A DNA stretch of 64,000 nt. It comes from Cyanophora paradoxa CCMP329 (taxonomy: Eukaryota > Plantae > Glaucophyta). Location of the stretch: the NCBI GenBank assembly GCA_004431415.1, contig QPMI01000449.1:124001-188000 (forward strand), given 5' to 3'. Below are positions 41,553-64,000 of the stretch, piece by piece; the stretch's first letter is position 1; the number at the start of each line of letters is the position of its first letter. The notes beneath the pieces are model-generated. The model searched no databases and had not been told where the DNA came from. It worked only from the letters and a program-made list of their open reading frames with translations. A program made the position numbers and the translations under genes.

Positions 41553-41585
41553 CTGTGGTGAAGACAGCAGCAGCAGCAGCATGCC

Positions 41586-41646
41586 GCTCGAACCCACGAC
41601 CATTAGGTTAAAAGCCTAACGCTCGTACCAACTGAGCTACCAGGGC
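41586..41646 (-). tRNA. tRNA-Lys(UUU) positions 1-60 only; the 3' T-stem and acceptor strand are missing downstream
   Basis: GCCCTGG TA GCTC AGTTGGTAC GAGC G TTAGG CTTTTAA CCTAA TGGTC GTGGG TTCGAGC, then GGCATGC instead of CCCAC-CCAGGGC. Confidence 0.8.
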
Positions 41647-41908
41647 CGTCGGACCTCTGCCCGGTGGGCCCGACCGGTCCCGTTCTCCCCGCTGCACTCC
41701 GCCGACTCCGCGAGCGCTCCCGCCGCCCGGAGAGCGTTCCCGCCGCCCGGTGAGCGCTGGGCACCTCCATTTCGCGCCGTGCACGCCCCGCTCCGCCCTG
41801 GCGCGGCGTGAGCCCGCGCAACGCTGACGGCGGCCGCGAGACGGGGCGGCCCGGCGGCGAGGCCGCGAAGCGCGCTTCCACCGCTCCAGCGATCGCAGCA
41901 ACAGGACA

Positions 41909-44030
41909 ATGCCGGCCGGCGGCGCGGAGGCGGCGGCCCCAGCGGCGCGGCTCGCCGACCTGCCCGACGAGCTCTTGCAGCGCGTCGCGACGCACCTCGG
42001 GCCCCTCGGGGCGCTCCCGCTGCTCTCCGTGAGCCGCAGGCTTCGCTGCGCGCTCGCCGGCGCGCCGTGGGCCGAGCTCGCGCTCGACCTGCGGGCGTGC
42101 CTGCGAATTCGAAGACGGGACGACTGCGGCGCGGCGGGTTGCGGGGCAGCTGCGGCCGCGGGCGGTGGGCGCGCTGGTGCTGAGCGGCGCGGGGCCGGCG
42201 GCGGTCGAGGCGCTCCTCTCATTCCTCGCCGGCTCCTCCCCCGACCTCGAGTCCGCCGATGTCCTTCCCACCGCGGGGTCGGGTGCCCTTCCGATTCGAC
42301 CCGCTGCGCTCGCCCGCCCGCCCGCGCTCAGCCCCGCGCAGACGGTATCGCGGCCGCGCGCGCCGCGGCCGACGGCCTCCGGCACTTTCCTCGCCTGGCG
42401 ACCCTCAAGTGGTCCGCCGCCCCGCCCCGCCGCCCCGCCCCCTCGCGCGGCTTCCGGCCGCCTCCGACGCGCTGCGCCAAAGGCGGGGCCCGCCGCTGGC
42501 CCTCTCGGGCCTACCCTCGCTCCGCCACCTCTCCATCCTCGGTGCGGTTCGCCGGACGCGCCTCGGACCCGGCCCGGGCTCGGCCAGCGGCTCTGAGCCC
42601 CGGCCCACGGGCTCCTGGTGCGCGCAGGGACGGATATGGCGGAGGCCGACGTCCGCGCCCTCTGCGCCGCCTTCCCCCACCTCGAGGCGCGCCCGCCCCG
42701 CCGGCCCCGCGGCCGCCGCCGGTGTTCCTTGGCCCCGCCTAACTAGTGGCTGGCCCCCGGTCCCGCCCCGCCCCACCCCGCCCCGCCCCGCCCCGTCCCG
42801 CAGTCTCTGGAGGGCTGGTTCGGGGACCGCGCCGCCCTCGCCGCCCTCGCGCCCCTCGCCGCCCTCCGCCGCCTCTCCGCCGACCTGGTGCCGCGTACCC
42901 CCCTCCCATGTCTCCCCCCCTGATCCGGGCGGGTACAGCTGGAGCCGGAGGGGCTCGAGTCGGCGCTGGCGGCCCTACCCTCCGGCCTCTCGGCCCTCGA
43001 GCTCGCCAGCATCGGCTACGAGGTCCGCGCCGCGCTGTACCCCCCGCCCCCGCCCGGCAGCTCACCTGACCCGCTGCCAGAGCATGTGCGCGGCCGCCCT
43101 GCGGACGCTCCCGCGCTTCGCCGACCTGCGGTCCCTGGCGATTGAGGTGCGGGTCGAATCCGCGCGGCGCCATTTCACGATTTCGCTCTGATTCGCGATC
43201 GGGCGCAGGTGGACCGCGGCTCGGCGCCCGCCCTGGGCGCCCTCGCGTCTGTACCCCTCCTCTCGGAGCTCCGCCTCTCCGTGCGCCTCGGGCACACCGA
43301 CGCCGAGGTGACGCGGTACCCCCCTCAGGGTTCCCTCCCCACCACCTGCTGACCTGCGTACCCCGCCACAGACGTCGGAGTTCGTCTCCGCTCTCTCGCG
43401 GGCGGTCGGGTCGATGCAGGCCCTCCAGGCGCGTACCCCCCCCCTCGCCCCCCGCGCTCCCGCCGCCCCCAGGAACGCCACTGTACCCCAGGACCTGGAC
43501 CTTGATCTGGACGACTGCACTGAGGAGGGCTGCGACGGCCCCGCGCGCGCCGCGGCGCTCCTCGCCGGCTGCCGGCCCAGGTGCCGTACCCCCCTTCTTC
43601 GTTTCTCTGTACCCCTCACACTTGGGTGCCTTGTAGGCTCCGGCGGCTCGGGGGGTACTTCCAGAGCCCCTCCCGCCTCGACCCGCTGGCCTCCGCCTTC
43701 GCCTCCGGCCCCTTCCCCCGCTTGAAGGTGCGCTTTCGCGTACCCCCCTTCCCCAAAAGATCTTTTGTTTTCTCGCCGCAGGAGGTCGAGATCACGTACG
43801 CGGCAGCCCGCTCCGCCCCCGGCGCGGAGTCCCTGTACCCCCTCCTCCACGCCCTCTCCGCGATCCACGCCGCCCTGGCGTCCTCCCACCCCCGGCCGCG
43901 CCTGCGGCTCCGGCTGGGGGCGCCCTCGGAGCTGCGGGGCGGGCCCCTGTTCCCCCAGTGGGAGGCCTTCTGGCGGGAGGCCGCCCGGAGCCCGTTCGGC
44001 GCCGCCCTTCTGCACCCCGCCACGCTCTGA
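41909..44030 (+). CDS. F-box / LRR protein, copy 1 (+1 shift near 42100 relative to copy 2)
   Basis: RLADLPDELLQRVATHLGPLGALPLLSVSRRLR; LRR-like FPRLATLK, LPSLRHLSIL and FADLRSLAIE. Confidence 0.75.
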
Positions 44031-44188
44031 GCTCGACAACTGGAGAGCTAGGCTTTATAATTTGATCATGACAAAAAGCAAAATACATATTATTACAAAG
44101 TTAAAGCAGATCTAAAGCGTCGATGCAATTTCGGTGGGAAATATAATATAGCCGCCTGATCATGAGTAGCATTCCAAAAATCTGATCT

Positions 44189-47441: not shown

Positions 47442-48049
47442 TTCGGCGCAAGCCGTTAATTGATTCTAAGTTCCTGGCTCTCATACAAATTTCTGTTCGT
47501 ACGTCTCGCTGCACAAAGAACGTATCGCACGCCCCGCAAAGACGCTAAAAAGGTGGAGAAGACTCATATCTCCAGACGTTTTTCTCAGAAGTTGAAAAGA
47601 CGCCGTCGAAATGCGATTCCGGCTCCAAAAACAGCATATGCATGCTCACATAGTCCAATCTGATCGCGAATGTGTCGCTCAACACGACGCCCAATACAGA
47701 AGAGCGGGGGACTCCGATATCGATGTTCGCGAGTCCAATGAGGATGTAGTTGATGCGCAACATCATCAAAGTCGCCCCCACGCGCCAGGAGAGGAGCGCG
47801 GACATCGATCGGGTGGGGTACAGGGTATACAAGGTGGGTACTAACAAGCTCAAGCCGCAGCTGGATGATCAAGCTCGTTCAAGCTCGTTGAGCTATAGCT
47901 CAAGCTCGTTAAGCTATAGCTCAAGCTCGTTGAGCTTTAGCTCAAGCTCCGATTGAAGCTCGTTGAGCTTTAGCTCAAGCTCAACGCCGAGCCCATCAAG
48001 CTTCGTGGCTCAAGCTTAAGCAGCTCAAGCCACAACGGGTTGCGCCGAA
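47442..48049. mobile_element. Possible non-autonomous element bounded by 16-bp inverted repeats, with an internal ~21-bp tandem array
   Basis: TTCGGCGCAAGCCGTT (47442-47457) and AACGGGTTGCGCCGAA (48034-48049) are 15/16 complementary; AGCTCAAGCTCGTTGAGCT(A/T)T repeats lie at about 47870-47985. Confidence 0.35.
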
Positions 48050-48097
48050 CTTTTGGCCGAAGGCCACCAGCTTTATGTTCCCCGCCGCCAGCTTGCC

Positions 48098-48158
48098 GCT
48101 CGAACCCACGACCATTAGGTTAAAAGCCTAACGCTCGTACCAACTGAGCTACCAGGGC
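48098..48158 (-). tRNA. tRNA-Lys(UUU) positions 1-60 only, copy 2
   Basis: Same 61 nt as 41586-41646, followed by GGCAAGC. Confidence 0.8.
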
Positions 48159-48421
48159 CGTCGGACCTCTGCCCGGTGGGCCCGACCCATCCCGTTCTCC
48201 CCGCTGCACTCCGCCGACTCCGCGAGCGCTCCCGCCGCCCGGAGAGCGTTCCCGTCGCCCGGTGAGCGCTTGGCACCTGTCTTTCGCGCCGTGCACGCCC
48301 CGCTCCGCCCTGGCGCGGCGTGAGCCCGCGGAACGCTGACGGCCGGCCGCGAGACGGCGCAGCCCGGCAGCGCGGCCGCGGAGCGCGCTTCCACCGCTCC
48401 AGCGATCGCAGCAGCAGGGCA

Positions 48422-50562
48422 ATGCCGGCCAGCGGCGCGGAGGCAGCGGCCCCAGCGGCGCGGCTCGGCGACCTCCCCGACGAGCTCTTGCAGCGCGTCG
48501 CGACGCACCTCGGGCCCCTCGGGGCGCTCCCGCTGCTCTCCGTGAGCCGCAGGCTTCGCTGCGCGCTCGCCGGCGCGCCGTGGGCCGAGCTCGCGCTCGA
48601 CCTGCGGGCGGCCGCGGCCGGCGAAGACGGGACGACTGCGGCGCGGCGGGTCGCGGGGCAGCTGCGGCCGCGGGCGGTGAGCGCGCTGGTACTGAGCGGC
48701 GGGGGTGCGGCGGCGGTCGATGCGCTCCTCTCATTCCTCGCCGGCTCCTCCCCGAGCTCGAGTCCGCCGATGTCTTCCCCGCCCCCGGGTCCGGTGCCAT
48801 CCCGATCCGACCCGCTGCGCCCGCCCGCCCGCCGGGCGGCCCTCGCTCAGCCCCGCGCAGACGGGATCGCGGCCGCGCGCGCCGCCGCCGACGGCCTCCG
48901 GCGCTTCCCCCGCCTGGCGACCCTCAAGTGGTCCGCCGCCCCGCCCCGCCGCCCCGCCGCCCCCCCGCGCGGCTTCCGGCCGCCTCCGACGCGCTGCGCC
49001 CCAGGCGGGGCCCGCCGCTGGCCATCTCGGGCCTCCCCTCCCTCCGCCACCTCTCTATCCTCGGTGCGGTTCGCCGGACGCGCCTCGTACCCTGCCCGGG
49101 CTTGGCCAGCGGATCTGAGCCCCGGCCCACGGGCTCCTGGTGCGCGCAGGGACGGACATGGCGGAGGCCGACGTCCGCGCCCTCTGCGCCGCCTTCCCCC
49201 ACCTCGAGGCGCGCCCGCCCCGCCGGCCCCGCGGCCGCCGCCGGTGTTCCTTGGCCCCGCCTAACTAGTGGCTGGCCCCTGGTCCCGCCCCACCCCGCCC
49301 CGCCCCGCTCCGCCCCGTCCCGCAGTCTCTGGAGGGCTGGTTCGGGGACCGCGCCGCCCTCGCCGCCCTCGCGCCCCTCGCCGCCCTCCGCCGCCTCTCC
49401 GCCGACCTGGTGCCCCGTACCCCCCTCCCATTTCTCCCCCCGCCCCCTGATCCGGGCGGGTACAGCTGGAGCCGGACGGGCTTGAATCGGCGCTGGCGGC
49501 CCTACCCCCCGGCCTCTCCGCCCTCGAGCTCGCCAGCATCGGCTACGAGGTCCGCGCCGCGCTGTACCCCCACACCCACGCCCGGCAGCTCACCTGAACC
49601 GCTTCCAGAGCGTGTCCGCGACCGCCCTGCGGACGCTCCCGCGCTTCGCCGACCTGCGGTCCCTGGCGATCGAGGTGCGGCTCGAATCCGCGCGGCGCCA
49701 TTTCACAATTTCGCTCTGATTTGCGATCGGGCACAGGTGGACCGCGGCTCGGTGCCCGCCCTGGGCACCCTCGCGTCTGTACCCCTCCTCTCGGAGCTCC
49801 GCCTCTCCGTGCGCCTCGGGCACACCGACGCCGAGGTGACGCGTTACCCCCCTCAGGGTTCCCTCCCCACCACCTGCTGACCCGCGTACCCCGCCACAGA
49901 CGTTGGAGCTCGTCTCCGCTCTCTCGCGAGCGGTCGGCTCGATGCAGGCCCTCCAGGCGCGTAACCCCCACTCGCCCCCCGCGCTCCCGCCGCCCCCCAG
50001 GAACGCCGATGTACCCCAGGACCTGGACCTTGATCTGGACGACTGCACTGAGGAGGGATGCGACGGCCCCGCGCGCGCCGCGGCGCTCCTCGCCGGCTGC
50101 CGGCCCAGGTGCCGTACCCCCCTTCTTCTTTTCTCTGTACCCCTCACACGTGGGTGCCGTGTAGGTTCCGGCGGCTCGGGGGGTACTTCCAGAGCCCCTC
50201 CCGCCTCGACCCGCTGGCCTCCGCCTTCGCCTCCGGCCCCTTCCCCCGCTTGAAGGTGCGCTTTCGCGTACCCCCCTTCCCCAAAAGATCTTATTTTCTC
50301 GCCGCAGGAGGTCGAGATCACGTACGCGGCAGCCCGCTCCGCTCCCGGCGCGGAGTCCCTGTACCCCCTCCTCCGCGCTCTTTCCGCGATCCACGCAGCC
50401 ATGGCGTCCCTCGAGCTTGGCCCCCGCCCGCGCCTGCGGCTCCGGCTGGGGGCACCCTCGGAGCTGCGGGGCGGGCCCCTGTTCCCCCAGTGGGAGGCCT
50501 TCTGGCGGGAGGCCGCCCGGAGCCCGTTCGGCGTCGCCCTTCTGCACCCCGCCGCGCTCTGA
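48422..50562 (+). CDS. F-box / LRR protein, copy 2
   Basis: MPASGAEAAAPAARLGDLPDELLQRVATHLG; paralog of 41909-44030, with one C fewer in a run near 48750. Confidence 0.75.
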
Positions 50563-51365
50563 GCTCGACAAGTCGGCGCGCATCGACAACCGTTGAACAC
50601 GGCCGACCTCGAGGCTATAATATAATGCCGCTAGATGTACATTATACATCTATTGTGCTCAAATCAATAGCTCACATTCAAATACCAAATGTTCGATCTC
50701 CGCGAGCCAAATGTTCGCCAGGTCGGCGGAGAGGCGAGGGGCGCTAGGCCTAGGGCGGCGCGGGAAGAAGCTCCCACCCCTCCGGCCCGGCGGCCGACGC
50801 CCGGGCCCCGGCCGGCGACCGACGCCCCGGCTGCGCGCGCGGTCGGGGACCACGCCCCGGTGCGCTCATATCATGGAAGTTAAGGAGGGATCGCGATCGG
50901 AGAGGGAGAGGGCCACGTGCCCTCCCGAGGCTCGTGCGACTCGGCTCGAGGCACGAACTCGATGAGAGAAGATCCTCAAATCGATATCGGACAGGCCGGC
51001 GCCAGGCCCATAGCATGCGCATGGCCAGGGGCCCGGCCCGGCCCGGGCGCCTGCCTCTGGTCCGCGCCGGGCATGAGCTATAGCTAGCGATTGAAAGCTC
51101 GAACGCTAGCTATATATATGTGGGCCTTTGTGAAGCGTTGAGCTCTCGAGCTTGCCCCTTCGCTGTCAATGCATTGTTAACCCTCGGAGGTTGCATGAGT
51201 CACGCGTCGCGGAGGTTTGGGTGTTATATTGCGATCAGGTACACGCTGCACTAACAGGGGGGCTAGCACTAACCGACGCGGGGAGTAACAGCCGGTGTAC
51301 CCCTCGGGGGGCCTCCCGGCCTCTAACGATGCTCAGGCTCTAACTGAATGCTGTACCCCCCGCTG

Positions 51366-52102
51366 TTACTGCCCGAACCTTCCGAACTTGCGTAATTCGG
51401 CCTCGCCCTGTACCCAGTGGCTGGTGTCGTCCATCCATTCGCGTACCTCCCTCTGACGCTTGAGTGACTCACGCTGCTCGGGGTAGGGAGGGGGGCCTTC
51501 GAGGCGGGGTGGGGAAGGGGGTACGGTGGCAAAATTCAGCCACTCGGGGGTATGCCGAATTCGCCGTGAACGATCCTCTGCGGTGTGAAATACCGGTCGC
51601 TGCTCACGGCCAAGTGGAAGAACGCGCTCCTGAGCCCGGAGAGGAAGCGTGGTTGCATGAATGGCTGCTGGAGGGACTCGTCGCGCCAGGGGGCTACGAA
51701 ATCAATGATACGCTGCTGTACCTGCGCGGGCAGGGCAAGGATCTGGCTCTTGCGGTTCGCAAAGGCCGTCCACAGCGCTTGCAGGTCGGCCCAATCGCCG
51801 TTCAGATCCCTGCGTTCGCGCCTCAGGTACGATCTCGGGTTCTCTGTCATACCCATCAAGCCCGCGGCCCTGATCATCTCCCTGTCCGGGAGCTCTCGCT
51901 CGTCGTGGAATTCGTCTCTAATCCAGCGCACAAGGTAGAGCACGCGCTCCATGAAGTTCTCCGCCGGCGAGCCGCCCCCTGAGGACGTGCGCCTCCCCTC
52001 CAGCACTGCGTTCGCATCCTCCAAGTCCACGTTCCGCTGTCGAATCTCCCCGTCCAGGTCGCCGTTGTTGTACAGCACGTCGGACTCGCGTGTTCGCGCC
52101 AT
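51366..52102 (-). CDS. Orphan protein A (paralog of B); frameshift near 51540
   Basis: ORF 51536-52102 continues in another frame as KRQREVREWMDDTSHWVQGEAELRKFGRFGQ, stop at 51366-51368. Confidence 0.65.
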
Positions 52103-52136
52103 GCTCGCGGCTCGGTGAGAATTTATACCTGTACCC

Positions 52137-52969
52137 CTACTCGCGGTCGGGGTACCTGTCGCCGGGCATCAGCCTCGCGCGCTTCCGCATCTCCGCCTCC
52201 CCGGGTAGCCAGTTCTTCGGGTCGTTGCTCCACTCCTCCCATTCGCGTATGTCCCGTCTGACGTCACGCGGGGCGGGGCGTTTATCGGTGGGGCGGACGG
52301 GGCTGGCAGGGCCTGGCGCGGGGGTTGAGGCCCCTGTTCCACGAGTACTCGGGGTACTCTTCCCATCCCAGGGGTACCAGATTCATCGGAATTGGCTCAA
52401 CTTCGAATTGGGGCTTTTTGACGTGATAATCATAGTTTGTGACATACGCCGTCACAGCCGAGCGCAAGCGCGAGAGGTCGCGCAAATTTACGTCGTCCCA
52501 TTGCGAGTCCCTTGCCTTCGCGTACCACTCGAGGATTTGCATGCGAATGTGGTCCGGGAGGGTCGAGAGTATGCTGAGCTTGGAGCCCAGGGCGAACCAG
52601 ATGCGCTTGAACTCGTCGATAATCCTGCCCTCGTCGTGGCTCCGAAAGTAATGGGCACCGCCAGCGTTGTGATGCGAATCGAGCCACCCTGCCTGGGCCA
52701 GCTCTAGCACCGGCCAGGGTTGGCGCTGTCGATTCGGTCGCGAGGCCCGCTCAACCACCCAGCGTCTAAGGTCCTTGACCTGATCTATGAACTGTGCGCC
52801 GCCACTACCCTTGTCTGGTTGGTTCACTGTCGATTGTGCTTCGGGCCTTCGGGTCCTTCGCCTTTCGTCAAAACCGCACAACCGGCTTGGGCGTGTCTTA
52901 TACATACTCTTCTTCTTCTTCTTCGAACTGTGCGATCACGTCCTTGGGCGCTTCCTCTGCATCCGACAT
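52137..52969 (-). pseudogene. Orphan protein B (paralog of A); disrupted near both ends
   Basis: MSDAEEAPKDVIAQFEEEEEEYV-stop; core ORF 52282-52905; tail VRRDIREWEEWSNDPKNWLPGEAEMRKRARL, stop at 52137-52139. Confidence 0.6.
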
Positions 52970-53019
52970 TTGTAATTGCACACATCAAGAAATTCTAAAC
53001 GCTACTGCGAGGCTAAGCT

Positions 53020-53709
53020 ATGCATACCGATACAGATTGCGAGACTTTGCAACAGGGGAGCGCGGCGTGGCACGCGGCGCGCCGTGAAAAACTAACTGCA
53101 TCTAATTTTGCGGCTGCGTGCGGCATAAACCCCTGGAAATCCAGGGCCCGCCTGTGGGCGGAGCTAAGCGGGATAGCGGAGGAAAACAACTTTGACAACC
53201 CTGCCCTAACCTATGGGCATGATTATGAGCCCTTCGCGGTCTCTATCTACAAGGCACTGAACGATAACGTTGACATTAAACATACTGGACTGCACGAACA
53301 TAAAGAAATGCCGTTCCTCGCCGGTAGCCCCGACGGACTTATAGGAAATGATAGAATTTTAGAGGTGAAATGCCCGTACAAGGGCGAACTTTATGATAGA
53401 GTTCCTACTTATTACATGCCGCAGTTACAAGGACTTCTGGACATAACGGGCCGCGAGTGGGCCGAACTTTTTTGCTTCACTCCTCTGCGCGTGCAAACGT
53501 GGTACGTCAGGCGCGACGAGAGGTACATCGAGCTCATGAGGAAGTGCTTACATCTATTTTGGATGCACGTCAAGGAGGGCACGCCGCCCGAGCCCTACAG
53601 CGATCGAATGAAGTTAGAGAACCTCAGCGAGGAGCAGGCGGCGCTGCGCGAGTTTAAGTCGTACGCCCTCCTCTCAGAGTCTAGGCAGACTACTTCTGTC
53701 CCAGGCTAG
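53020..53709 (+). CDS. YqaJ-like viral recombinase / lambda-exonuclease family nuclease
   Basis: QGSAAWHAARREKLTAS, ALTYGHDYEP, FLAGSPDGL, LEVKCP and YYMPQLQGLL. Intronless and visibly more AT-rich than the host genes. Confidence 0.92.
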   Translation: MHTDTDCETLQQGSAAWHAARREKLTASNFAAACGINPWKSRARLWAELSGIAEENNFDNPALTYGHDYEPFAVSIYKALNDNVDIKHTGLHEHKEMPFLAGSPDGLIGNDRILEVKCPYKGELYDRVPTYYMPQLQGLLDITGREWAELFCFTPLRVQTWYVRRDERYIELMRKCLHLFWMHVKEGTPPEPYSDRMKLENLSEEQAALREFKSYALLSESRQTTSVPG

Positions 53710-53751
53710 GTCTTTGGAATCTTAATATAAATTTTCCGGGGACCCGGGACA
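53697..53751 (+). repeat. 50-bp palindrome with AT-rich centre, copy 1 (5-nt insertion)
   Basis: tgtcccagg[ctagg]tctttggaatcttaatataaattttccggggacccgggaca. Confidence 0.9.
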
Positions 53752-53849
53752 GGCCTTGTCGGACATGGCAATGTCAGAACCTTCCCGATCATCTAGATCT
53801 ATAATGATTCTAGGGAGGGTCCAGACACATCTCTTGTGCGGACCACTTC

Positions 53850-53899
53850 TGTCCCAGGTCTTTGGAATCTTAATATAAATTTTCCAGGGACCCGGGACA
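53850..53899 (+). repeat. 50-bp palindrome, copy 2
   Basis: tgtcccaggtctttggaatcttaatataaattttccagggacccgggaca. Confidence 0.92.
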
Positions 53900-54030
53900 G
53901 GCCTCGTCGAACAAACCTCTTCATGGGCCAAGATTTCGTGCATGCATCGGCCGCAGCTCATGCGAAAAATCATGTCTGATCCGATCCTGATCATGACGTC
54001 CTGCAAATTGAAGAATCGTCTGACCGGGAG

Positions 54031-54080
54031 TGTCCCGGGTCCCTGGAAATTTTATATTAAGATTCCAGAGACCCGGGACA
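54031..54080 (-). repeat. 50-bp palindrome, copy 3 (inverted)
   Basis: tgtcccgggtccctggaaattttatattaagattccagagacccgggaca. Confidence 0.92.
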
Positions 54081-54169
54081 GATCTACCTAGAGGGAACAT
54101 CCAAAATGCTGTACCCCTCCCACCCCGTGATCTTTCGAATTCAATCTGATGGGCCGACCTGAGTGACGG

Positions 54170-54219
54170 TGTCCTGGGTCCCCGGAAAGTTTATATTAAG
54201 ATTCCAAGGACCTGGGACA
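54170..54219 (-). repeat. 50-bp palindrome, copy 4 (inverted)
   Basis: tgtcctgggtccccggaaagtttatattaagattccaaggacctgggaca. Confidence 0.9.
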
Positions 54220-54285
54220 AGAGCAATGCATTTTCGCACGACGTTGACATAGCCTGATCACGAGAGAAAAATGTACCCCGATCTA

Positions 54286-57200
54286 TCAAATCCGCCGATG
54301 GAGCAGCGAGTAGCAGTCGCAGAACAGATCTTTCACCTCCAAGTAATCCGGCCCCACGCCAGCCCAGCGCTGCCTTGCTTGGCGCTCTGCAACATCTTCG
54401 AGAGTGTCTTCCTTGACCCACGTGATGCACTTGCGCTTGCGAGAGCCGGCGCCCTCCTGCCCTTCTCGGGTCCGTTTTTCCCCGGACCGGGCCCGTCTCA
54501 CCCCCATGTACTTTTCGAGCAGGTACTGAATCACCCGCCACGACTGCTGCGCAAGCTTGGCCTTCTCATTGTCCGATGCATCGAGTTTAGGGGCCCGCTC
54601 GTCCAGACTCTGCAGCACCGCGTAAGCCTCCCGGCCCTCCGGTGATGCGAGCGCCGCGTAGGCTTCGTCCGACCAAAGCATACAGCTGTCGCCGGCCAGC
54701 TTCTCGTACCCCGGCCCAAAAAGTCGCTTGAAAAGCTCCGCAACCTTCGAGACCCTGTGGTACTCAGTAGACGAGGCGATCTCGGCCATGTCGCCGCCGC
54801 GCTTCAGCACAAGGATGATCCGCGACATCAGCGGGATCGAGTAGAATGACTTCCACAGCCAGGCCACGTCGCTCTCGGTCAGCGCGCTTGCGTCCTTGGC
54901 CAGGAACGCAGCGGTCGCTAGGCGCGCGAGTGCAGCAACCTTCTCCACGTCGACCTTAGCAAGCGAATCGCGCGAATGCCACCAGGAGTCCAGCAGCATG
55001 TACAGTTCGGTGATGTCCAGGGCGGAGACTCGAGTACGTACTTGATCTCGCGCTGCCGCTGCTCCTTCTCCTCTTTCGGCCCCTTGTTTCCCTGATCCTC
55101 CGTGACCCGCACGTTCATCACGGCGCAGGTCGACAGCAGCCGCAGCCGCGCGGCCACGGCGAGGCGCCGCGTCGGCATGCCGGCCCGCCGACTCCCGTGA
55201 TGGCTCGCCTTCAAGTCCAGATAGCGCTGCGTGTCTGCAGTGCTAGCTCTCTCATCATCGCTCTCACGCCAGTGCGCGGTCGCCTCGCCCACGCTGACGG
55301 AGGGCGCGGACGCGCGGCTCTTGCGCACGGCGACGAGCAGGTGCTCTCCGCCGGGCGGCTCGCCGCGCCTGCGCAGCTTTCTCACTCGGAACAGCAGCTG
55401 CACGATGTCGTCGGCCTCTAGCTGCGCGGGTTCGGCCTGGAAAACGCCGTAGATCTTGTCAAAGTGCGCTTCCGGAAAGTCCACGCCCGCCCCGAGCGCG
55501 GACGTCGCGATGAGCACGTCGCAGGCCTTGTACGCGCCCTCCTCCGAGACGTCGATCGACACTACGCGGACCGGGCCCTCGTTCGTGAAGCGCACGCTCT
55601 TCTCCTTCGCCTGCCCAACGATGAGCCCAATTGTGAACGGTGCGCCGCTGCCGTCCTCGGGCCCTGCCTCGAGCTGAGTCACGTACTGAGCGCCGCCCAG
55701 GCTGAGCTGCTCCAGCGCCTGCTTCGAAATCTTGTCTGCTAGCTCATTCGCCTTGGCCGGCGTCTCCGCGATGATCATGGCCCGCGAGCGCCCAGGTCGG
55801 CACTGCACCATGATGTCCTTCTCGACGTGCGCCGGGCTGTCTGACACGCGCATCTTCCAGTCGCAGGTCCGGCGCGAGTTGTGCAGGAGCCCAAGGCGCG
55901 CCCCGCGCTCCAGCGCGGACTCCGCGAGGTACGCGAGATCGACCGGCCGGACGAAGCCGTCCATCGCCACGATGCGCGAGGCCTTCATCACGTTTCGCAT
56001 TAGCTGCACGCAGCGCGCGTTTCGGGGCATTGACCGCACGCCCATGTGCAGGCCGGCGGGTTCGAGGGTGCCGCTCGAAGTGAGGTGCTTCGTGAGGGAG
56101 GAGAGCTCGTCCAGCACGATCATCAGCGGCGCAGTCGACCAGCCCGCCCAGTCCTCAAGTACCTTGTGCAGCGAGTCGATCGTGATGACGACGCACCTGC
56201 ACTTCGGATGGCGGTAGCCCCACTTGCCGTGCGTCCCATTTGAGCTCTCCGGCGGCTTCTGAATGTCCATGTACAGCACGGCGTCCTCAGGCAGGCCCAC
56301 GTCATCCAGGCGGCGCTTCAGGTCGCGGGAGAAGGCGCGGCGGCAGGTCAAGAGGATCACGCGCCAGCCCCCTCGAGGGCTGGCTTCAGGTACGTCTCGA
56401 TGAGGGCCTGCGTCTTCCCCGTGTTGAGGCCCGAGCAGATGACGTCGACCTGGGCGGCCCCCGGCTCCAGCGGACCGAACGTGGAGGTGAGCAGCCCTGG
56501 ATCGCGCGTCAGGTAGTCCGTATCCACGACCTTCACGCAGTGCGGTGTCAGGCCCGTCGATTCGAGTGCGATCAGGAGCGACGGGAGGGCCACGTCGAGC
56601 GCCACGGGCTGGGACGGGTCCGTCACGTAAGACGCCGCCGTCTCGCTGCAGCTCCCGTCTCCAGCTCCCCCCTCCTGCTCCACCTCGACACCGTGCGCCC
56701 GAATCGCGATTCTGAGGGCCGGCGATCCTGGCTGATCGCTCATCTTCAGGGTGATTGTTCCGTCGGGCTCGACTGCAATGTCTTGAACGCGGCGGGGGTC
56801 ATTCAGGCTGATCTCAGTGCGCAACGCCGCCCCCGCCCGCCAGATCTCGTCCCTCACCAGCTTGTTCTCGCGCAGGAGGCTCAGGAACCGATCGAAGTCC
56901 GGGAGCGGAGCCTGGGCGTCGCCCGTCAAGCTCAGCGGGGGGTGGGGCGGCTCCTTGCGGGGGAGGAGCTCCTGGCGCCGCAGTCCCGAGCAAGCCCCCC
57001 GAGCTGCGGCGCCCTGCGGCCCCTGCGCCACCCCCTGCGCCGATCCCTGCGTCGGCCCCTGCAGGACGTAGGCTCCTGTGTCGTCCCCCCCGAGCTCCAG
57101 GCCGCTAGATGTCCCCAGCAGCCAGGTCGCAAAGGCGCAGGCCTCCGGGCTCTGCAGGACGTAGGCAGCCTTGAGCCCGTTGTGCGATGTTCGAGAGAAA

Positions 57201-57456
57201 GTGAGGCCTCCGAAGCTCTCCGCGCATGCACGGGCGGCCGCGGTGCTCGTCTCGTCTTCCGCGTCGGAGAAGTGCTTGGACATGATGTGCGGCGGGTGAA
57301 AGATACAGAAGACCATTCCGAGATCAGCGCTGCAGACCTTCTGGACGCAGACGAGGGGAAGCGAGTGAAGAAAAGCTCTTCTTGCGGGCTCAGGTCCACG
57401 GGAGTTACCCCCGGCAGACGGGAGAGTAGACTGTCGGAGCACGTCGAGGTGGCCAT
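54286..57456 (-). CDS. Replication origin-binding protein-like SF2 helicase (herpes UL9 / NCLDV OBP-like), split by single-base shifts
   Basis: Walker A VICSGLNTGKT; Ia ILLTCRRAFS; ITIDSLHKV; Walker B MIVLDELSS; III IVAMDG; V LIATSALGAGVDF..HFDKIYG; VI IVQLLFRVRKL. Frames join by adding one G at about 56370 (EGGWRVILL) and one C at about 55022 (PPLDITELYML). Confidence 0.85.
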
Positions 57457-57635
57457 GCTCTCGGGTTAGGCCTGCTGTTTCGTGTTAGGCTTGGAAAATT
57501 TTCAGTGGCACCGGCCGGAAACTGCACACCTTGAGAACTCGAACTCGAACTCCAAGGCTCGGTGAATTGGCGCTAGCTGCACTGTCGACGTCGACTGTCG
57601 GACCGTCGACGTCGGACTTCGGATGTCTCGTCTTC

Positions 57636-57685
57636 TGTCCCAGGTCTTTGGAATCTTAATATAAATTTTCCAGGGACCCGGGACA
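57636..57685 (+). repeat. 50-bp palindrome, copy 5 (upstream of the helicase)
   Basis: Identical to copy 2. Confidence 0.92.
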
Positions 57686-58653
57686 CTCTGGTCTGACGAC
57701 GCTGCAGCTCGAAGCGCTCAACTGGGTCCGGTTGACGGCACACAGGCTATCAGGGTGCCAGGCCTAGCCTAGTACGTAGGCTGACCGTCGGACCAGTACT
57801 GGCGGTTCAGTTGAAGCCGAGTACTACTAGCGCTAGCTATAGCGCCAGCGCTAGCTGTAGGCTAGTACTAGTACTAGATCGAGAGACGGTACGGCGCGCC
57901 ACAGCTAGCGAGCTCGCGCTCGCTCGCCTTTGCGCTGAAGCTTAGAAAATTTTGGGCTCACGCGGTCGTTCCACGTGTTCTGTCCGGACAACCTGTACCC
58001 CAGCTGTCCAGCCAAGTAGTCAGAGCTCTCCAATCCTGCGGCGCTTGGGCCCCGTGCTTCTCAGAGCACTTGATGGAGGCCAGCGTGTGCGTTCTGTGCT
58101 CTCGGGAGCCGCCGCTTCGTTCCCGCCGATGCAGAAGTGCGTCTCGGTCGGCGACCCCTCTCTCCGCGGAGCGGCTAGCTGGAGAGCTCTCCCGATGCCG
58201 CGCGCTTACACTGCGGTGCGCAGGCTCGGTTGCTGTGGCCGGCAACCTTCGAGAGCTCGATGGCACCCAAGCTGAACCACCTCGCCGCATCGCGGAGGTG
58301 CTGGCTCCCTCTTTCGCAGCTCTTTCGCTTACACTTACACTTTCGCTAGACCGTGCCGCACAGCCTCGCGCTCATTTCCCCCACGTTCGCAGAACTTCGG
58401 CGTCGGCGCAGGTTCCGGGATCTGCGACCGCGCCTCCCGCAGCTCGAGCCGGCGTCTGCGGCGACCCGCGCATGCATCTAGATCCTATTCTGAAACCCGT
58501 GCGTCGATCCGGGGTCCCGGGCTCGCGTTCCTGCGCCTCCCGGACCCTCACACTGCTCCTGTTTGCATCCTAGCTAAGACCTTCCTCGCCCGCAGCCGGT
58601 CTCGTCCTCGGCACATTGTGAGCGGCATCAGTGGAGCTGGAGTTCCGCACTTT

Positions 58654-59741
58654 ATGCAGGCCCGTGCGCCCTTTCCCGCCCCGCCCCGCCCAGCCCCGCC
58701 CCGCCTCGCGTGCGCTATAGCTAGCTAACCCTGTCGCGCGCGCCGCAGAGGGTTCGTAGCCGGAGGGCTCGCAGGCCGCGGCCCGGACACCTCCGCCGCC
58801 GTCGGCGCCGACATCGAGAACGGCCGGCTGGACGAGACCCTCGCCGGCTTCGGCTCCTGGTGCCGCCCCTACTCCTACAAGCTCGGCGGCGTCTGGCAGA
58901 CCTACATCCGCGGCATCGTCCCCAAGGCCCCGCTCTCCCTCGGCGAGAGCCAGCCGGCGCTGGAGGCGATCGCGATCCCCGTCGCCCAGTTCAAGGACCC
59001 GGCGCCCGACGTCGGGCCCTTCCTCGTCAAGCCCCACACCAAGGGCAAGGGCAAGCGCACCCGCAACTCGGCGCCGGCCTTCCTCCCGCCCCAGCCCCCC
59101 GCCACGGCCCCCCAGCAGCGCCCCGGCCAGCAGCGCATCGACGAGATGCTGCCGCGCCAGGTCCGGCCCCGCGTACCCCCCGCCTTCCCTGTACCTCCCT
59201 CCCCCTCGCCCCGTTCCTGATCCAAGGGCAGGGTACCTCCGCCTCCCCCGCGAGCGCCGACGGCCCCAGCCCCGTCCCCGGCCCCGGCGCCGTCCTCTCC
59301 GCGATCCAGGGCTTCGGGGCCCAGCAGGAGGCCGAGCGGCAGGCCCTGGCGGCGCGCCTGGCGCGCGAGGCGGAGGAGCGGCGCCAGGGCCGTCGGGCCC
59401 AGCGCCTCCAGCACACCCTCGCCTTCCGCGCCGAGCTGGAGGCGGGCTTCCGCGCCGGCCAGATCTCCGGCGCGGAGGCCTCGGAGCGCTGGCGGGCGTT
59501 CGAGGCGGAGACGGCGGGGCTGTCGAAGGGCCTCGGCTACAGCTACCGGCGCGTGGCCGTCCCGCAGTCCTACGCGCGGCGGGCGACGCTGGAGGCCTCG
59601 CGCGCGGAGATCGACGCGGCGGAGGACGTGCGGCGGCGACGGAGGCCCACGCCGAGACCTTCCGCCACCTCCACCACTGAGGCCCGAGGCGGTATTTTTT
59701 CTCAACCCTCCTCAAATCGGTCCCGCGATGGCCTTCGCTGA
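58654..59741 (+). CDS. Intron-containing hypothetical protein inside the element
   Basis: Exon ADIENGRLDETLAGFGSWCRPYSYKLGGVWQTYIRGIVP..DEMLPRQ is joined by GT-AG intron 59161-59231 to a coiled-coil exon. A further GTGCGC..GCTAAC..GCAG intron candidate lies at 58664-58748. Start is unresolved. Confidence 0.55.
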
Positions 59742-59919
59742 CAGCTACCCACAGCACTACACCCTTGGAGCCCTCGCCGCGACCCTCACCTGGCTCCTCG
59801 GCGGCACCCCCACCGCCTCGGCCGTCATAGGCGTGGGCTTCGGCTATGCCGCCAAGTCCCTCTACGCCCCCGGCTCCGTCTCGATGGCGACGGCCGGCAT
59901 GCGCCCCGCGGGGCGCTAA
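59728..59919 (+). CDS. Small two-TM protein (63 aa)
   Basis: YTLGALAATLTWLLGG and SAVIGVGFGYAA hydrophobic hairpin; ATG start. Confidence 0.6.
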   Translation: MAFADSYPQHYTLGALAATLTWLLGGTPTASAVIGVGFGYAAKSLYAPGSVSMATAGMRPAGR

Positions 59920-60037
59920 GTTAACTCTCCCTTTTCAAAGTTTTCCCAAGTTCATTCCCCCCTTTCCCTTTTCCAAGTTGCTCAAGTCCGTCGACGTTCC
60001 CTTTTAAATTTTCTTCATTCACGTTACACGTCTAAAC

Positions 60038-60535
60038 ATGCCCAACGCCGTAGAGAAGCTGTTGTGTACGGTGTTCAAATCGGACTCGCGCTGCAGCAAG
60101 ATCGGCGAGGCTGCCAAGGGCGGGGGCGGGGCGAAGGCCGGCGGCGGGGCGGAGGGGCCTAAGATAAGGGGCGCGGACCCGGCGCCGCCGGCGCTAAAGT
60201 CGATTAAGGCTGCGGGCAAGGGCCGCGGCGTCGGGCCCCTGCCCCTCGTGGCGATCGCCCCGGGCCAGCGCGAGGCGGCGCACGCGGCGACGGCGGCGCT
60301 GGCCTCGCAGCAGCAGAGGGAGGGGGCGCCGCGCCTGAGCGCCGGCCTCTGGTCGCAGCCTGCGCCCGCGCGCGAGTACGGCGTCAGCGCTTACTTCGAC
60401 GGCGCGAACGAGCTGAGCCGCCAGGAGATCTGGGCCTGGGAGGCGCGGCGCGCGGTCGACGGGCACCTGCCGTTGCTCGTGGCGCTCGGCGGCTCGCTCC
60501 TCATGGTCTGGTACCTGCGCGGCTTCGCGATTTAG
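60038..60535 (+). CDS. Hypothetical protein with C-terminal TM anchor
   Basis: ATG start; ends LPLLVALGGSLLMVWYLRGFAI. Confidence 0.6.
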   Translation: MPNAVEKLLCTVFKSDSRCSKIGEAAKGGGGAKAGGGAEGPKIRGADPAPPALKSIKAAGKGRGVGPLPLVAIAPGQREAAHAATAALASQQQREGAPRLSAGLWSQPAPAREYGVSAYFDGANELSRQEIWAWEARRAVDGHLPLLVALGGSLLMVWYLRGFAI

Positions 60536-60564
60536 ATAGATTTTCGAAGCGCTAGCTAGTAGAG

Positions 60565-60891
60565 ATGAGCTGGCTCGACGCGCTGCTCACCAAGACCTTT
60601 GGGCCCAAGGGCGCGCCGCGGCTGCAGTTCGGTGAGCTCAACGCCGCGATCGGCGCCACAGTCGAGATGAAGAACCGCGAGAACGTGCTGCGCGGCGACG
60701 GAGGCGCGTGGGCGGACATTGCGGCGGGCGCGCTGGGCTCCGCACTCACCGCACCGGGCAAGGCGGGCCGCGCGCTCACGGACGTGGCCGAGCGCTTCTG
60801 GCACTGGCTCAAGGTTGCCGTGGTCATCGCCGCAGCGGTTGTGGCGGGTCTCCTGGTGCTCGAGGCTCGCGCGCTATTTTCTAAACGCTAG
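60565..60891 (+). CDS. Hypothetical protein with C-terminal TM anchor
   Basis: MSWLDALLTKTFG...WLKVAVVIAAAVVAGLLVLEARALFSKR. Confidence 0.65.
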   Translation: MSWLDALLTKTFGPKGAPRLQFGELNAAIGATVEMKNRENVLRGDGGAWADIAAGALGSALTAPGKAGRALTDVAERFWHWLKVAVVIAAAVVAGLLVLEARALFSKR

Positions 60892-60907
60892 GTAAAGCGA
60901 GCGAACC

Positions 60908-61309
60908 ATGCCCCGCGGCGGCTCTTCCCCCGTGTCTCCTTCGCTGAGAACGAAGTCGCCGCTACCCCCTGGAGCCCGGCGTCAAGCTGGAGCGCGCGAA
61001 CGCAGTCTCCGTCAAGAAGGCCAAGCGCGCGCTGGTTCTAGAAGTCCCCAAGACCGCCTCGCAGTTCCTTCCCACGTCCGAGTACGACGGCACGGAAGAT
61101 ACGGAGAAGGTTGCATTCAACAAGCGCAAGACGTACAAGGCGATACGCGAGGGCCAGCTGCTGCCCACGGACGCGGTTCCCGGGCTGCCGGCACCACGGC
61201 CGGCGAGCTGCTCGTGCGCAACCTGCGCCTGCAGTACGTCTCCCGCCTCCGCCGCTCCAAGGCCAAGAAGGCGCGCCTGGACTCGGGCGATAGCAGCTCT
61301 AGCTCGTAG
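60908..61309 (+). CDS. Basic hypothetical protein, probably frameshifted
   Basis: An alternative frame reads LEPGVKLERANAVSVKKAKRALVLEVPK..FNKRKTYKAIREG; the end is LRRSKAKKARLD. Confidence 0.45.
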   Translation: MPRGGSSPVSPSLRTKSPLPPGARRQAGARERSLRQEGQARAGSRSPQDRLAVPSHVRVRRHGRYGEGCIQQAQDVQGDTRGPAAAHGRGSRAAGTTAGELLVRNLRLQYVSRLRRSKAKKARLDSGDSSSSS

Positions 61310-61324
61310 GGCTCTGTACTCAAT

Positions 61325-61608
61325 ACTACCAGTTCCTGTTCCTATCCCAGAGCACGACTCGGGTAAAGGGCACGGTCATAGCGAACATGAACTCGGCAAA
61401 CTTGGAGAAGTTCATGAGGGTCCCTAGGCGCGGGTCCTCCAGTAGATAGCTTCGCGCAGGGACTCGTAGATGCGCATGAGGGAGCGCTCGTTCTCGGTCG
61501 CGAAGGCGTCGGAGGGCTCGTCGGGATCCGGATCCGAGAGCTCCGAGTACTCGTCCGAGCTGCCAGCGCTCTCGACGCCTGCGGCCGGGTCGGGCGAGGG
61601 TCAGCCAT
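61325..61608 (-). CDS. Small acidic hypothetical protein, disrupted
   Basis: Frames give SDEYSELSDPDPDEPSDAFATENERSLMRIYESLREAIYW then MNFSKFAEFMFAM. Confidence 0.4.
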
Positions 61609-61634
61609 TCTTTGCTGGTAGAAGGGCTAGAAAA

Positions 61635-61975
61635 TCACGGGCGCCGGTACTCCATCGAGTCGCCGCGCCAGTACTTGTTGCCGGAGGCGAGCAGCTTCAT
61701 CGGCTCGCCCGTCGAGTCGTGCGTCCAGGCCTCGCCCGTCCAGACGGCCGTGCCGCCGTCCTCTAGCTTGAGGCGGTGGCCCGCCTCGAGCCGATCGCCG
61801 TTGAGCATGCGGCCGGCCATGAGCGCCAGGTCCCACTCGGTGAGGCCGCGCTGCTCTTCGGGGTGAGGCCGCGCTCGACGCGCTCGGGCTGGCGCGCCTC
61901 GCGCTCCATGCGGCTGAGGCCCACCAGGAAGAAGATCGGCAGCGCAAAGGCCATGAGATCTAGCAGGGCCTCCAT
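61635..61975 (-). CDS. N-terminally anchored small membrane protein, one frameshift
   Basis: MEALLDLMAFALPIFFLVGL..RGLTP joins EEQRGLTEWDLALMAG..WTGEAWTHD across a C run. Confidence 0.5.
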
Positions 61976-62276
61976 TGGGCAAGACTTAGAAAAGGTTCCG
62001 GCCAGGCCCGAGAGCTGCGGGCCCAGGCGCCGGGCGGCGTAGTAGAGCGCGGCGGCCGCGGCGGCCAGGATCAGAAGGCGCGGCGGCCGCGCGCGGCTCC
62101 TCCAGGGTCAAGTCCACGGTCTCTGGCTCGCGGGCCGGCGTCGCCAGGATCTCGGGCTCGGAGCTAAGGGACTTGGGCCCGCGGCGGCGGCGCTGCTTGG
62201 GGCGGAGGCGGCGGCGGCGGCGGAGAGAAGGTCCTCGGGCTCCTGCTTGATACCTGCGCAGTCAGTAAAGTCCATG
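61975..62276 (-). CDS. Small hypothetical protein with C-terminal TM, frameshifted
   Basis: MDFTDCAGIKQEPED.. followed in another frame by RLLILAAAAAALYYAARR. Confidence 0.4.
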
Positions 62277-62337
62277 CTTGCTGGGTACCTCGGAAAATTG
62301 TGGGAGGTGCCCGGCGGCTGCGAACGTAGGATGGGGG

Positions 62338-63765
62338 AGAAGTGACGCGGACGCGAATACGTCATAGTCGAATACGTCATAGTCCAAAACCTGGACTCGG
62401 GACTCGGCCCGGGCCCTGGGAGGGGGTACATGTTATGTCCAAATGTCCAAATGTCCAAATGTCCAAATGTCCAATTGAAAGGTTGCGGAGGTTGCGGACG
62501 CGTCACAAATACGTCATAGTCGAATACGTCATAGTCCAAAACCTGGACTTGGGACCTGGGCCCAGACTCTCGCCAAGTTTCAAATAATAATACTGTACCC
62601 TGTTATCTGCAAGCTTATCTTATCGTTATCGTGTCACCTATCCTATCCCGATCCTATCGCTATCCTTTCGCGATCGCTTGACTACACTATTGCATTCATT
62701 GCTTTTGAATGTAGTTAATGTCATAGCAACTTGAACATGATGTCATGATGATTTCAAGTTAAATACCGGGGTACGGTGTTTTTGTTCAAGTCTCTTTTTT
62801 TACCGGCAGGGCCCGGCCGAGTCCCGAGTCCAGGTTTTGGACTATGACGTATTCGACTATGACGTATTTGTGACGCGTCCGCAACCTCCGCAACCTTTCA
62901 GTTAATTAATTAAGCACTGGGCTAGCGCTAGGCTAGCTAGATATCGATACCAGCTAGCTAGCTCAGCTCTACCCTGCCCAAGTTGATGTATCTAGCAGCG
63001 CCTGCTCCTCTAAGTCTGCACCGCCTCCTCCTAGCGCTAGCGCTAGCTCGATACCGCCTCCAGACTTGATCTCCCTTGGCTTCAGCCACCGAAGGGGCTC
63101 AGGCCACCTCCTCCTGGTGAAGCCGGTATCGTTGCGCTTGTCCAGCTTGAGGTAGCGGTAGGGCGCCGGCGCCGGCCAGTCGGCCTGTGGCTGCTGGCCT
63201 CCTTGGCTATGTCCTTGGCCTACGCGGAAGCAGGTCGGCCTTGGCCTTGGCCTTCTGCAGAGGGCCCAGCGCCTTGAACTTCGGTGCCTTCGTCGCCGGC
63301 AGGGCCTTCGGCTGAGGCTTCGGTGCCTTCTGCGCCTTCGTCTTCGGCTGCGGCTGCGGCTTTAGCTGCTTCGATTTCGGCATACTTCTTGCTCATAAAT
63401 GAGAAAAGCGCTCGAAGTCGGCTTTTATCTCCTCCTTGGTCCAGGATGTCATCTGAGTCGGGTCACCTGAGAACGGCGCATCGAACGCCACGTGGAGCGA
63501 TTTGCAGGCCTGAGCTATCATTGGCTCCGGCCAGGCCAGCTCGATCAGCTGAAGGTAGATACTGAGGGCCTTGTCGAGCTTGCGCCCTGGAGACTAGCTG
63601 GGAGATGGCGGGCTCCATGGTACTGGATTAAGCAGCTAGCCGGGGTTCAGAAATGGCGCCAAGTCCGAGCTTATTTTTTTACCGGCGGGGCCTGGGCCGA
63701 GTCCCGAGTCCAGGTTTTGGACTATGACGTATTCGACTATGACGTATTCGCGTCCGCGTCACTTC
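62338..63765. promoter_or_regulatory. Four ~70-bp modules with tandem GACTATGACGTATT units in mirror symmetry around an AT-rich centre
   Basis: Minus copies at about 62338-62410 and 62475-62555, plus copies at about 62815-62900 and 63695-63765; (ATGTCCAA)5 at about 62435-62474. Confidence 0.75.
63207..63383 (-). CDS. 58-aa Lys/Pro-rich basic peptide, overlapped by a 58-aa acidic ORF at 63220-63396
   Basis: MPKSKQLKPQPQPKTKAQKAPKPQPKALPATKAPKFKALGPLQKAKAKADLLPRRPRT. Confidence 0.35.
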   Translation of the reverse strand: MPKSKQLKPQPQPKTKAQKAPKPQPKALPATKAPKFKALGPLQKAKAKADLLPRRPRT

Positions 63766-63869
63766 CCCCCCTCTTCAGGTGAGCGCTCACCTGACCCTCA
63801 CCTGAACGGCCTCAAAACCGCAGCCGCGCCGCGCCCTCGCTCACACTTCACAGCCAAGAGAAATCAAGA

Positions 63870-64000
63870 ATGTGCGCCCCAAGTACGAGACTGCTGCCTG
63901 ACCTTCGGCATCTTCGAGTACGAGGCCATGGACGAGGATCTCGACGAGAACGGCGAGATCTGCTTCAACTACTGCAGGCTGCTGCGCAACATCTCGCTGG
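63870..64000 (+). CDS. Hypothetical protein, 3'-truncated by the window
   Basis: Protein-like frame LTFGIFEYEAMDEDLDENGEICFNYCRLLRNISL downstream of the last repeat module; the ATG at 63870 is in a different frame. Confidence 0.4.
   Translation, partial: MCAPSTRLLPDLRHLRVRGHGRGSRRERRDLLQLLQAAAQHLA

Follow-up and report, generated by a model that had tools for sequence, protein, structure and literature searches.

A multi-copy element bearing helicase and nuclease genes

The window, a 64,000-nucleotide stretch of a contig of the glaucophyte alga Cyanophora paradoxa, contains a portion of a multi-copy element inside a eukaryotic genome, a setting that the preliminary description had overlooked. 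Short-read depth (run X1) was 103 on the flank contig (50504–51136) and ranged from hundreds to >20,000 from there to position 64000, and the step at the left edge of the element was repeated in all four short-read runs. By this depth, the element is present in tens of copies. Two neighboring genes of the element could be assigned to families:

51110..64000, no strand: multi-copy virus-like element, placed by the short-read depth step (left end approximate, right side beyond the window)
53020..53709, plus strand: YqaJ-like (lambda-exonuclease type) nuclease gene (Pfam PF09588, E 2.6e-28)
54286..57456, minus strand: UL9/CyRepA1-type superfamily 2 helicase gene (~1,050 codons; the assembly breaks its frame three times)

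The other visible ORFs of the element had no family match. A tRNA search found none, and the sole match in an Rfam search was a chance miRNA hairpin with a score far under the cut-off. A separate four-copy repeat at 62,333–63,771 is a better candidate for the promoter module of the element than the palindromes described below. A mirusvirus reading was dropped, as the main text of PMC10827195 does not mention Cyanophora. We found no description of the element or its palindromes in the literature, where subscription papers or supplements may contain one.

In seven of seven sister proteins, the end of YqaJ lies 11 residues earlier, at ~53676. The pairing of the two genes is conserved, with a helicase model adjoining nine of 13 YqaJ accessions; scans for related loci with the helicase or YqaJ gave no match. 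The helicase coding sequence of the window is spread across several frames, a point not made in the preliminary description, and its three frame breaks are probably assembly slips. It comprises an N-terminal region of no assigned kind, a helicase core and a helical C-terminal domain. At least four helicase subtypes (45–86% identity) occur within a near-invariant backbone (YqaJ, 94–97%).

Sequence relationships and predicted structure of the helicase

Comparisons with Pfam, PDB sequences, NCBIfam and an atlas place the gene product among UL9-type helicases, as in the earlier assignment. Pfam Herpes_ori_bp (PF02399) matched at E 1.8e-4 (20.2 bits against a cut-off of 20), HSV replication origin-binding protein provided the top four of six PDB sequence matches (E 0.011–0.012, in the motif I–Ia region only), NCBIfam CyRepA1 matched the helicase core (E 2.6e-13) and PF02399 was present in the top three clusters of the atlas search. 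All protein homologs are C. paradoxa gene models, and a search of 1.84 billion representatives returned five matches, each of them again from C. paradoxa. The RVKNL motif and the C-terminal ICP8-binding motif are absent from 20 aligned homologs, and the N-terminal frame gave no match in Pfam, PHROG or NCBIfam. There was also no match in a phage tblastn search, no useful match in profile searches of PDB sequences and no usable match in an atlas search with the C-terminal part of the helicase.

A single-sequence model of the helicase, spanning part of the N-terminal region, was poor (pLDDT 35.9). The protein modeled for structural comparison was P0094, an in-frame sister of the window helicase (mean pLDDT 52.9, with the helicase core poorly folded). 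Its C-terminal domain spans residues ~280–547 and includes a basic hairpin at 476–506. Among 48,161 chains, the top match to this model was 9hgi_A, HSV-1 OBP on OriS, with a Z score of 6.5 that is tied with unrelated rows (6.3, 5.8) and falls under the noise level of ~8 of the structure search (rmsd 3.6, 145 residues aligned, identity 8%). Model residues 342–512 aligned to residues 569–811 of 9hgi_A, which constitute the origin-binding domain. Among the top BFVD matches were giant-virus entries named "replication origin-binding protein" and SF2 helicases (E 0.0025–0.04), and Foldseek on the PDB gave nothing at E 0.001, with UL9 neither listed nor found on re-examining the matches. The C-terminal domain of the helicase is predicted, with the modest score of the 9hgi_A match, to resemble the UL9 origin-binding domain.

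Five copies of an imperfect palindrome flank the helicase gene

Motif scans of the window recovered a palindromic motif at the five places and on the strands where it had been reported:

53697–53751, plus strand: copy 1, left arm longer by 5 bases, plus 1 substitution
53850–53899, plus strand: copy 2, the exact 50-mer, identical to copy 5
54031–54080, minus strand: copy 3, with 3 substitutions; arms closest to perfect (17/18 Watson-Crick)
54170–54219, minus strand: copy 4, with 4 substitutions; 66 bp beyond the helicase stop codon
57636–57685, plus strand: copy 5, the exact 50-mer; in the divergent-gene gap, 179 bp ahead of the probable start codon of the helicase

The motif had been presented as a 50-bp palindrome; a dyad with an AT-rich spacer is indeed seen, but its arms are imperfect and the exact 50-mer is found only in copies 2 and 5. 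Each unit is built of 18-bp imperfect arms around a 14-bp spacer with 12–13 A/T. Between one and four of the 18 arm pairs per copy are non-Watson-Crick, every one a transition, and 12 loop bases are invariant across copies. DNA hairpin z-scores of the five copies range from -2.1 to -7.8. Also as previously described, four copies form a ++/-- cluster between the convergent YqaJ and helicase genes and one lies upstream of the helicase, 179 bp before its likely start codon at 57456. All five copies are ≤600 bp from the helicase gene.

An ungapped scan of the 64 kb allowing up to 20 mismatches yielded no sixth copy, the 51 kb of host DNA within the window being devoid of the motif, and matches at 3 mismatches arose in none of 100 shuffles of the sequence. 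Motif scans of viral contigs, metagenome contigs and prokaryote genomes gave no match. The depth of the motif is compatible with its confinement to the element.

The palindromes as probable initiator binding sites

On balance, we favor the idea that the palindromes are binding sites of the adjacent UL9-type helicase, serving as an origin and an autoregulatory operator. Given a UL9-kind sequence and a predicted UL9-like C-terminal domain, no other single explanation suits the locus as well as an initiator-plus-site pair. With its C-terminal domain seated on each 18-bp arm, a pair of helicase units would come together over the 14-bp A/T spacer and open it, after which polymerases of the host would replicate the element. 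Binding to copy 5 within the promoter gap would allow the protein to limit its own synthesis, and the downstream four-copy cluster would provide a redundant origin or an array for copy control. Comparable layouts are the iterons on both sides of the rep gene in P1 and F plasmids and the clustered palindromes of baculovirus hrs. The adjoining YqaJ nuclease would have a part in replication coupled to recombination, like UL12 of herpesviruses.

Counting for binding by the helicase, 11 of 13 gene ends (hand-called in the element) have no palindrome copy, and copy 5 sits between divergent genes, with no annotated transcript ending there. The closeness of all five copies to the helicase gene and the conserved YqaJ–helicase pairing count in the same direction. 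Against it stand, besides the weak structural match, the missing RVKNL and ICP8-binding motifs and the sense orientation of copies 1–4, two further observations. First, depth arithmetic suggests that the YqaJ-side part of the cluster is common to ~6–7 times more element copies than the window helicase subtype, and the site therefore shows no visible co-variation with the subtype; the C-terminal domains of the window helicase and the common subtype are identical at 112 of 163 positions, and for the most divergent subtype the figure is 58 of 162. Second, a multi-copy dyad beside the rep gene was seen in none of the six CyRepA1 plasmid loci examined (of 14 matches), so this family does not always use such sites.

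Transcript 3' ends and other explanations

Alternatively, the palindromes could be transcript 3'-end signals, i.e. RNA hairpins that are cut and polyadenylated, as in the mimivirus hairpin rule, or that stop transcription of either convergent gene, YqaJ or the helicase, from running on into the other. We regard this explanation as unlikely, and it stays alive because copies 1–4 lie in sense behind two convergent genes: copies 1 and 2 follow YqaJ, the first 23 bp beyond the conserved coding end, and copies 4 and 3 follow the helicase, the first 66 bp beyond the stop. Moreover, every copy folds into a stable RNA hairpin, three of five variable arm positions switch between Watson-Crick and G-U pairs in the sense strand, and the loop contains AATATAAA, which is close to a poly(A) signal. 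Hairpin polyadenylation is documented in giant viruses (PMC5413956, PMC4402537). However, copy 5 lies in a divergent promoter gap, a copy is present at only two of the 13 hand-called gene ends, whereas the mimivirus rule places hairpins after most genes, and the element's other convergent junction (61309/61342) lacks one. The conservation of primary sequence across copies, including the 12 invariant loop bases, would not be needed by a structure-only signal. In addition, RNA folding is about equal on both strands (sense -21.3, -26.6, -35.3 and -24.7 kcal/mol vs antisense -17.8, -26.0, -32.4 and -25.1 kcal/mol), revealing no strand preference.

It is less likely still that the palindromes act in recombination, resolution or packaging, as lox/dif-like sites with an asymmetric spacer, for excision, concatemer resolution or exchange of a helicase cassette. 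Two arms with a directional spacer, the bracketing of the helicase by direct and inverted pairs and the presence of at least four helicase subtypes within a near-invariant backbone would all fit such a role. Yet the subtype-specific stretch overshoots copy 5 by ~1 kb, reaching about 58,666, so its border is not at a palindrome, and none of the joints listed (15 of 17) lies at one. Furthermore, the 14-bp spacer exceeds the 6–8 bp of tyrosine-recombinase sites, and the visible part of the element yielded no recombinase.

There is little to recommend the 50-mer as a tiny mobile or passively duplicated, MITE-like repeat with no tie to the helicase. Its TG...CA ends, terminal inverted arms and near-identical copies are MITE-like, but there is no target-site duplication (0–1 bp at five of five copies), and the flanking bases are common to copies, which points to segmental copying. 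Zero copies occur across 51 kb of host DNA, and the motif depth is at most about 30–37 times the subtype depth, a limit already reached with a few sites per element. Locally, the MITE-like scatter named beforehand as grounds for refuting the origin idea is not seen.

Finally, we give hardly any credence to a promoter or enhancer role, in which a transcription factor of the host or of the element would act on the palindromes and the spacer would be a TATA box: TATAAA occurs within the spacer, TATAAATT is found also upstream of the ORF ending at 52102 and copy 5 sits in a promoter gap, but four of the five copies lie downstream of genes, to which they would fire antisense, and the four-copy repeat at 62,333–63,771 fits a promoter module better.

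Implications of a possible initiator–site pair

Giant viruses, mriyaviruses, Polinton-like viruses (PLVs) and cyanobacterial plasmids widely encode UL9-like helicases, and in the literature we found a defined DNA target for herpesviruses only. The present locus supplies a short candidate site beside a candidate initiator in a culturable alga, which reduces the origin-binding question to a single gel-shift experiment. A working initiator–site pair could yield an episomal replicon for glaucophytes.

More tentatively, and with considerable doubt, Cyanophora may host a so far undescribed family of virus-like, integrated replicons whose replication begins herpesvirus-style, with a UL9-like initiator melting its own dyad/AT-spacer origin. 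If so, a matched initiator–origin pair of the herpes kind would exist outside herpesviruses, four initiator subtypes would share one genome, like plasmid incompatibility groups, and the pair would reveal what many uncharacterised giant-virus UL9-like helicases bind.

Comparison with known systems

Like endogenous PLVs of protists, the element is integrated in multiple copies and has dense small ORFs. For glaucophytes, 156 PLVs are listed, and PF02399 is scored in none of them, although it occurs in PLVs of other hosts, e.g. in 15 of 34 in Streptophyta (PMC12220804 Table S6). The element differs from these glaucophyte PLVs in having PF02399, and from PLVs in that the 13 kb lying within the window show no capsid, ATPase, integrase or terminal repeat.

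The best profile match of the helicase core is the cyanobacterial plasmid initiator CyRepA1, and the weak plasmid matches, 14 in number, are all cyanobacterial (10 annotated CyRepA1, three DUF3854). Unlike CyRepA1 proteins, the element helicase lacks a DUF3854 domain and scores 49.8 bits (window fragment, core only) or 55.1 bits (full-length P0001) with NF042913, against a cut-off of 200. The element has a multi-copy dyad, in contrast to all six CyRepA1 loci examined. Initiation on pSYSA is reported to be RNA-regulated (PMC10899382).

In the viral library, the best structural matches of the modeled helicase are UL9-like helicases of giant viruses and mriyaviruses (mimivirus R8, ASFV F1055L type), with which it shares a long N-terminal extension ahead of the helicase; unlike in the R8/F1055L type, no primase domain was detected in this region. 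YqaJ-type nucleases are common in giant viruses and mriyaviruses with UL9-like helicases (PMC11253617). No origin sequence was found described in the literature on these helicases.

Herpes OriS has inverted boxes around an AT-rich spacer, and the RVKNL recognition motif and the ICP8-binding C-terminal motif of UL9 are defined in the same source (PMC12543377). The element helicase has neither the RVKNL motif nor the ICP8-binding tail and, unlike UL9, is extended at its N terminus by about 330 residues. The GTTCGCAC box, its variants and Box 3 are lacking in the five copies and their flanks. Further differences are the five copies in 4 kb that flank the helicase gene itself, the algal host and the lack of any visible herpes core gene. 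With the RVKNL motif and the Box sequence absent, the palindromes do not belong to the herpes oriS class. The oriS-like initiator-plus-origin pair initially proposed is partly supported. For the C-terminal domain, a likeness to the UL9 origin-binding domain is predicted at a modest score. What the element has in common with HSV-1 is an SF2 helicase whose motif I/Ia signature is that of UL9, one copy between divergent genes, as for OriS/OriL, and inverted 18-bp arms about a 14-bp AT-rich spacer, as in OriS.

A multi-copy element begins within the window

The window DNA is eukaryotic and GC-rich. In short-read contigs from four DNA runs, depth stays at the single-copy level until about 51,136, beyond which it is much higher all the way to the end of the window: a multi-copy element starts near 51,110, inside a TA-rich run, and extends past 64,000. 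Its features relevant here are:

51090-51140, left end of the element, TA-rich run, depth step in short-read contigs
53697-53751, plus strand, palindrome copy 1
53850-53899, plus strand, palindrome copy 2
54031-54080, minus strand, palindrome copy 3
54170-54219, minus strand, palindrome copy 4
57,456 to 54,286, minus strand, helicase gene, in several reading frames in the window
57636-57685, plus strand, palindrome copy 5

Copy numbers from summed contig depth, a rough measure, with the flank set to one, vary by run: 4.4-11 for the helicase-specific stretch and 28-82 for the backbone near 53,837. Apart from YqaJ and the helicase, the element ORFs tested gave no significant family match. Between 52319 and 63890, many single-base gaps separate the window from the short-read contigs (12 listed, and 98 more) and several element ORFs are broken in this stretch; the assembly of the element is therefore error-prone. 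Elsewhere, the consecutive EukProt gene models P021073-P021076 read YqaJ-helicase-YqaJ-helicase and contig tig00000140 holds two helicase loci, and tandem arrays of the element are possible.

In the available part of PMC12220804, 156 glaucophyte Polinton-like viral elements are on record; the herpes origin-binding domain is scored in none of them and is present in such elements from other hosts. Giant-virus-derived regions have been reported from Cyanophora paradoxa (PMC12344493, in excerpt), a species for which we found no mention in the available main text of PMC10120064 or PMC10827195.

The element carries a second repeat family at 62333-63771, whose unit of about 60-84 bp occurs four times, first as a minus-strand pair and then as a plus-strand pair. 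Each unit contains a tandem GACTATGACGTATT, and 64 columns are invariant. The TGACG motifs are presumably CRE/as-1-like, and because two of the four copies lie upstream of ORFs, the repeat may be a promoter module. The host DNA has a tandem duplication (41577-44039 and 48089-50571; period ~6.5 kb, 87-97% identical) containing an F-box-like gene, and short palindromic tandem repeats at 47888-47986 and 15841-15903, AGCT-rich and GGCAGAGT-type.

The helicase is of the UL9 type

Walker A, CRR and DE motifs are present, as in UL9-type SF2 helicases. Pfam PF02399 scored just at its cut-off, herpes simplex virus (HSV) origin-binding protein gave the top matches in a PDB sequence search, and atlas neighbours were likewise UL9-type; the CyRepA1 profile matched with an E of 2.6e-13, yet far under its cut-off. 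The preliminary description of an origin-binding helicase is thus borne out by sequence as to a UL9-type SF2 enzyme. The RVKNL motif and the ICP8-binding tail are absent from the 20 aligned homologs.

Across the gene, short-read contigs show no substitutions; three gaps occur, a single one within 54,855-55,347 and the other two within 56,090-57,661. The last frame break recurs in two other gene models of the same subtype. Since the short-read contigs show gaps and P0094, a sister protein of the same subtype, is in frame over the last break, the breaks are probably long-read assembly slips.

All helicase homologs found are EukProt gene models, all labelled Cyanophora paradoxa except one entry that is unlabelled. 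The element's host is therefore very probably this glaucophyte, in which at least four subtypes occur side by side. The YqaJ proteins are 94-97% identical, and a helicase model adjoins 9 of 13 YqaJ accessions among those listed. Two YqaJ relatives from environmental assemblies, P0014 and P0015 (65% and 50% identity), may represent related elements beyond this species.

Palindromes as candidate initiator sites

All five palindromes were found at the coordinates and strands first described. The 50-mer said to be shared is identical in copies 2 and 5 only; relative to these, copies 3 and 4 differ at three and four positions, and copy 1 has five extra bases in its left arm plus one substitution. 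Each palindrome has 18-bp arms and an asymmetric 14-bp spacer with 12-13 A/T. In each copy, one to four of the arm pairs depart from Watson-Crick pairing, in every case by a transition. Scanning at up to 20 mismatches revealed no sixth copy in the window. Shuffled sequence yielded no match, and Rfam contains no matching family.

We somewhat favour the view that palindromes and helicase form a candidate initiator-plus-origin or initiator-plus-operator pair. The build of the palindromes matches OriS, the HSV-1 origin; they lie close to the helicase gene on either side, their primary sequence is kept across copies, and the two strands fold about equally well. In addition, 11 of 13 hand-called gene ends in the element lack a palindrome, and copy 5 lies between divergent genes. 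The last two observations also argue against the palindromes being transcript-end hairpins (rule in PMC5413956 and PMC4402537, both in excerpt), which we consider doubtful, even though YqaJ is followed by copies 1-2 and the helicase by copies 4-3, all in sense, as expected of such hairpins. A MITE is unlikely because there is no target-site duplication, no palindrome in the 51 kb of host DNA in the window, and a bounded motif depth; cassette-exchange sites are unlikely because the subtype-specific stretch runs on to ~1 kb past copy 5.

Counting against initiator sites, besides the sense placement of copies 1-4, is that co-variation of site and helicase subtype is not visible from depth. Depth suggests that the YqaJ-side part of the cluster is shared with the commoner subtype and that the surroundings of copies 3-5 are specific to the window subtype; a simple two-level model matched the bin depth in run X1, one of the four DNA runs (1,785 vs 1,773), and came to within some 20% of it in the remaining runs. 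The C-terminal domain of the common subtype is, however, identical to that of the window subtype at 112 of 163 positions. None of six CyRepA1 plasmid loci checked as a control, of 14, had a multi-copy dyad beside the rep gene, in a scan that is insensitive to poorer arms, as it recovered only three of the five window copies.

Comparison with known systems

According to the available parts of the sources, UL9-like helicases are known from giant viruses and mriyaviruses, mostly fused to a primase (PMC11253617), and CyRepA1 is a plasmid initiator that has been tested (PMC10899382). Literature listings, subscription papers aside, yielded no described origin for such helicases and no account of this Cyanophora element. 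UL9 binds OriS via its C-terminal domain (residues 536-851) by the RVKNL motif (PMC12543377, in excerpt).

A structure model of P0094, built on the 20-sequence alignment, had a mean pLDDT of 52.9, with the C-terminal half mostly at 57-88 and one block at 50. Of 48,161 chains compared, HSV-1 origin-binding protein in complex with OriS matched it best: residues 342-512 of the model aligned with 569-811 of the chain over 145 residues, at an rmsd of 3.6 and a Z of 6.5, a score in the noise range of the tool. Protein and domain are the right ones, and the alignment is about twice as long as those in the following rows. Foldseek did not find this protein; in a viral library, the best named matches were giant-virus origin-binding or SF2 helicases (E 0.0025-0.04). 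A basic predicted hairpin (GVRR...RKRK) is kept across helicase subtypes. The element helicase has the SF2 motifs of UL9-type helicases, may resemble HSV UL9 in its C-terminal domain, and lacks RVKNL and the ICP8-binding tail; it plausibly works like UL9, though it is not a herpesviral UL9.
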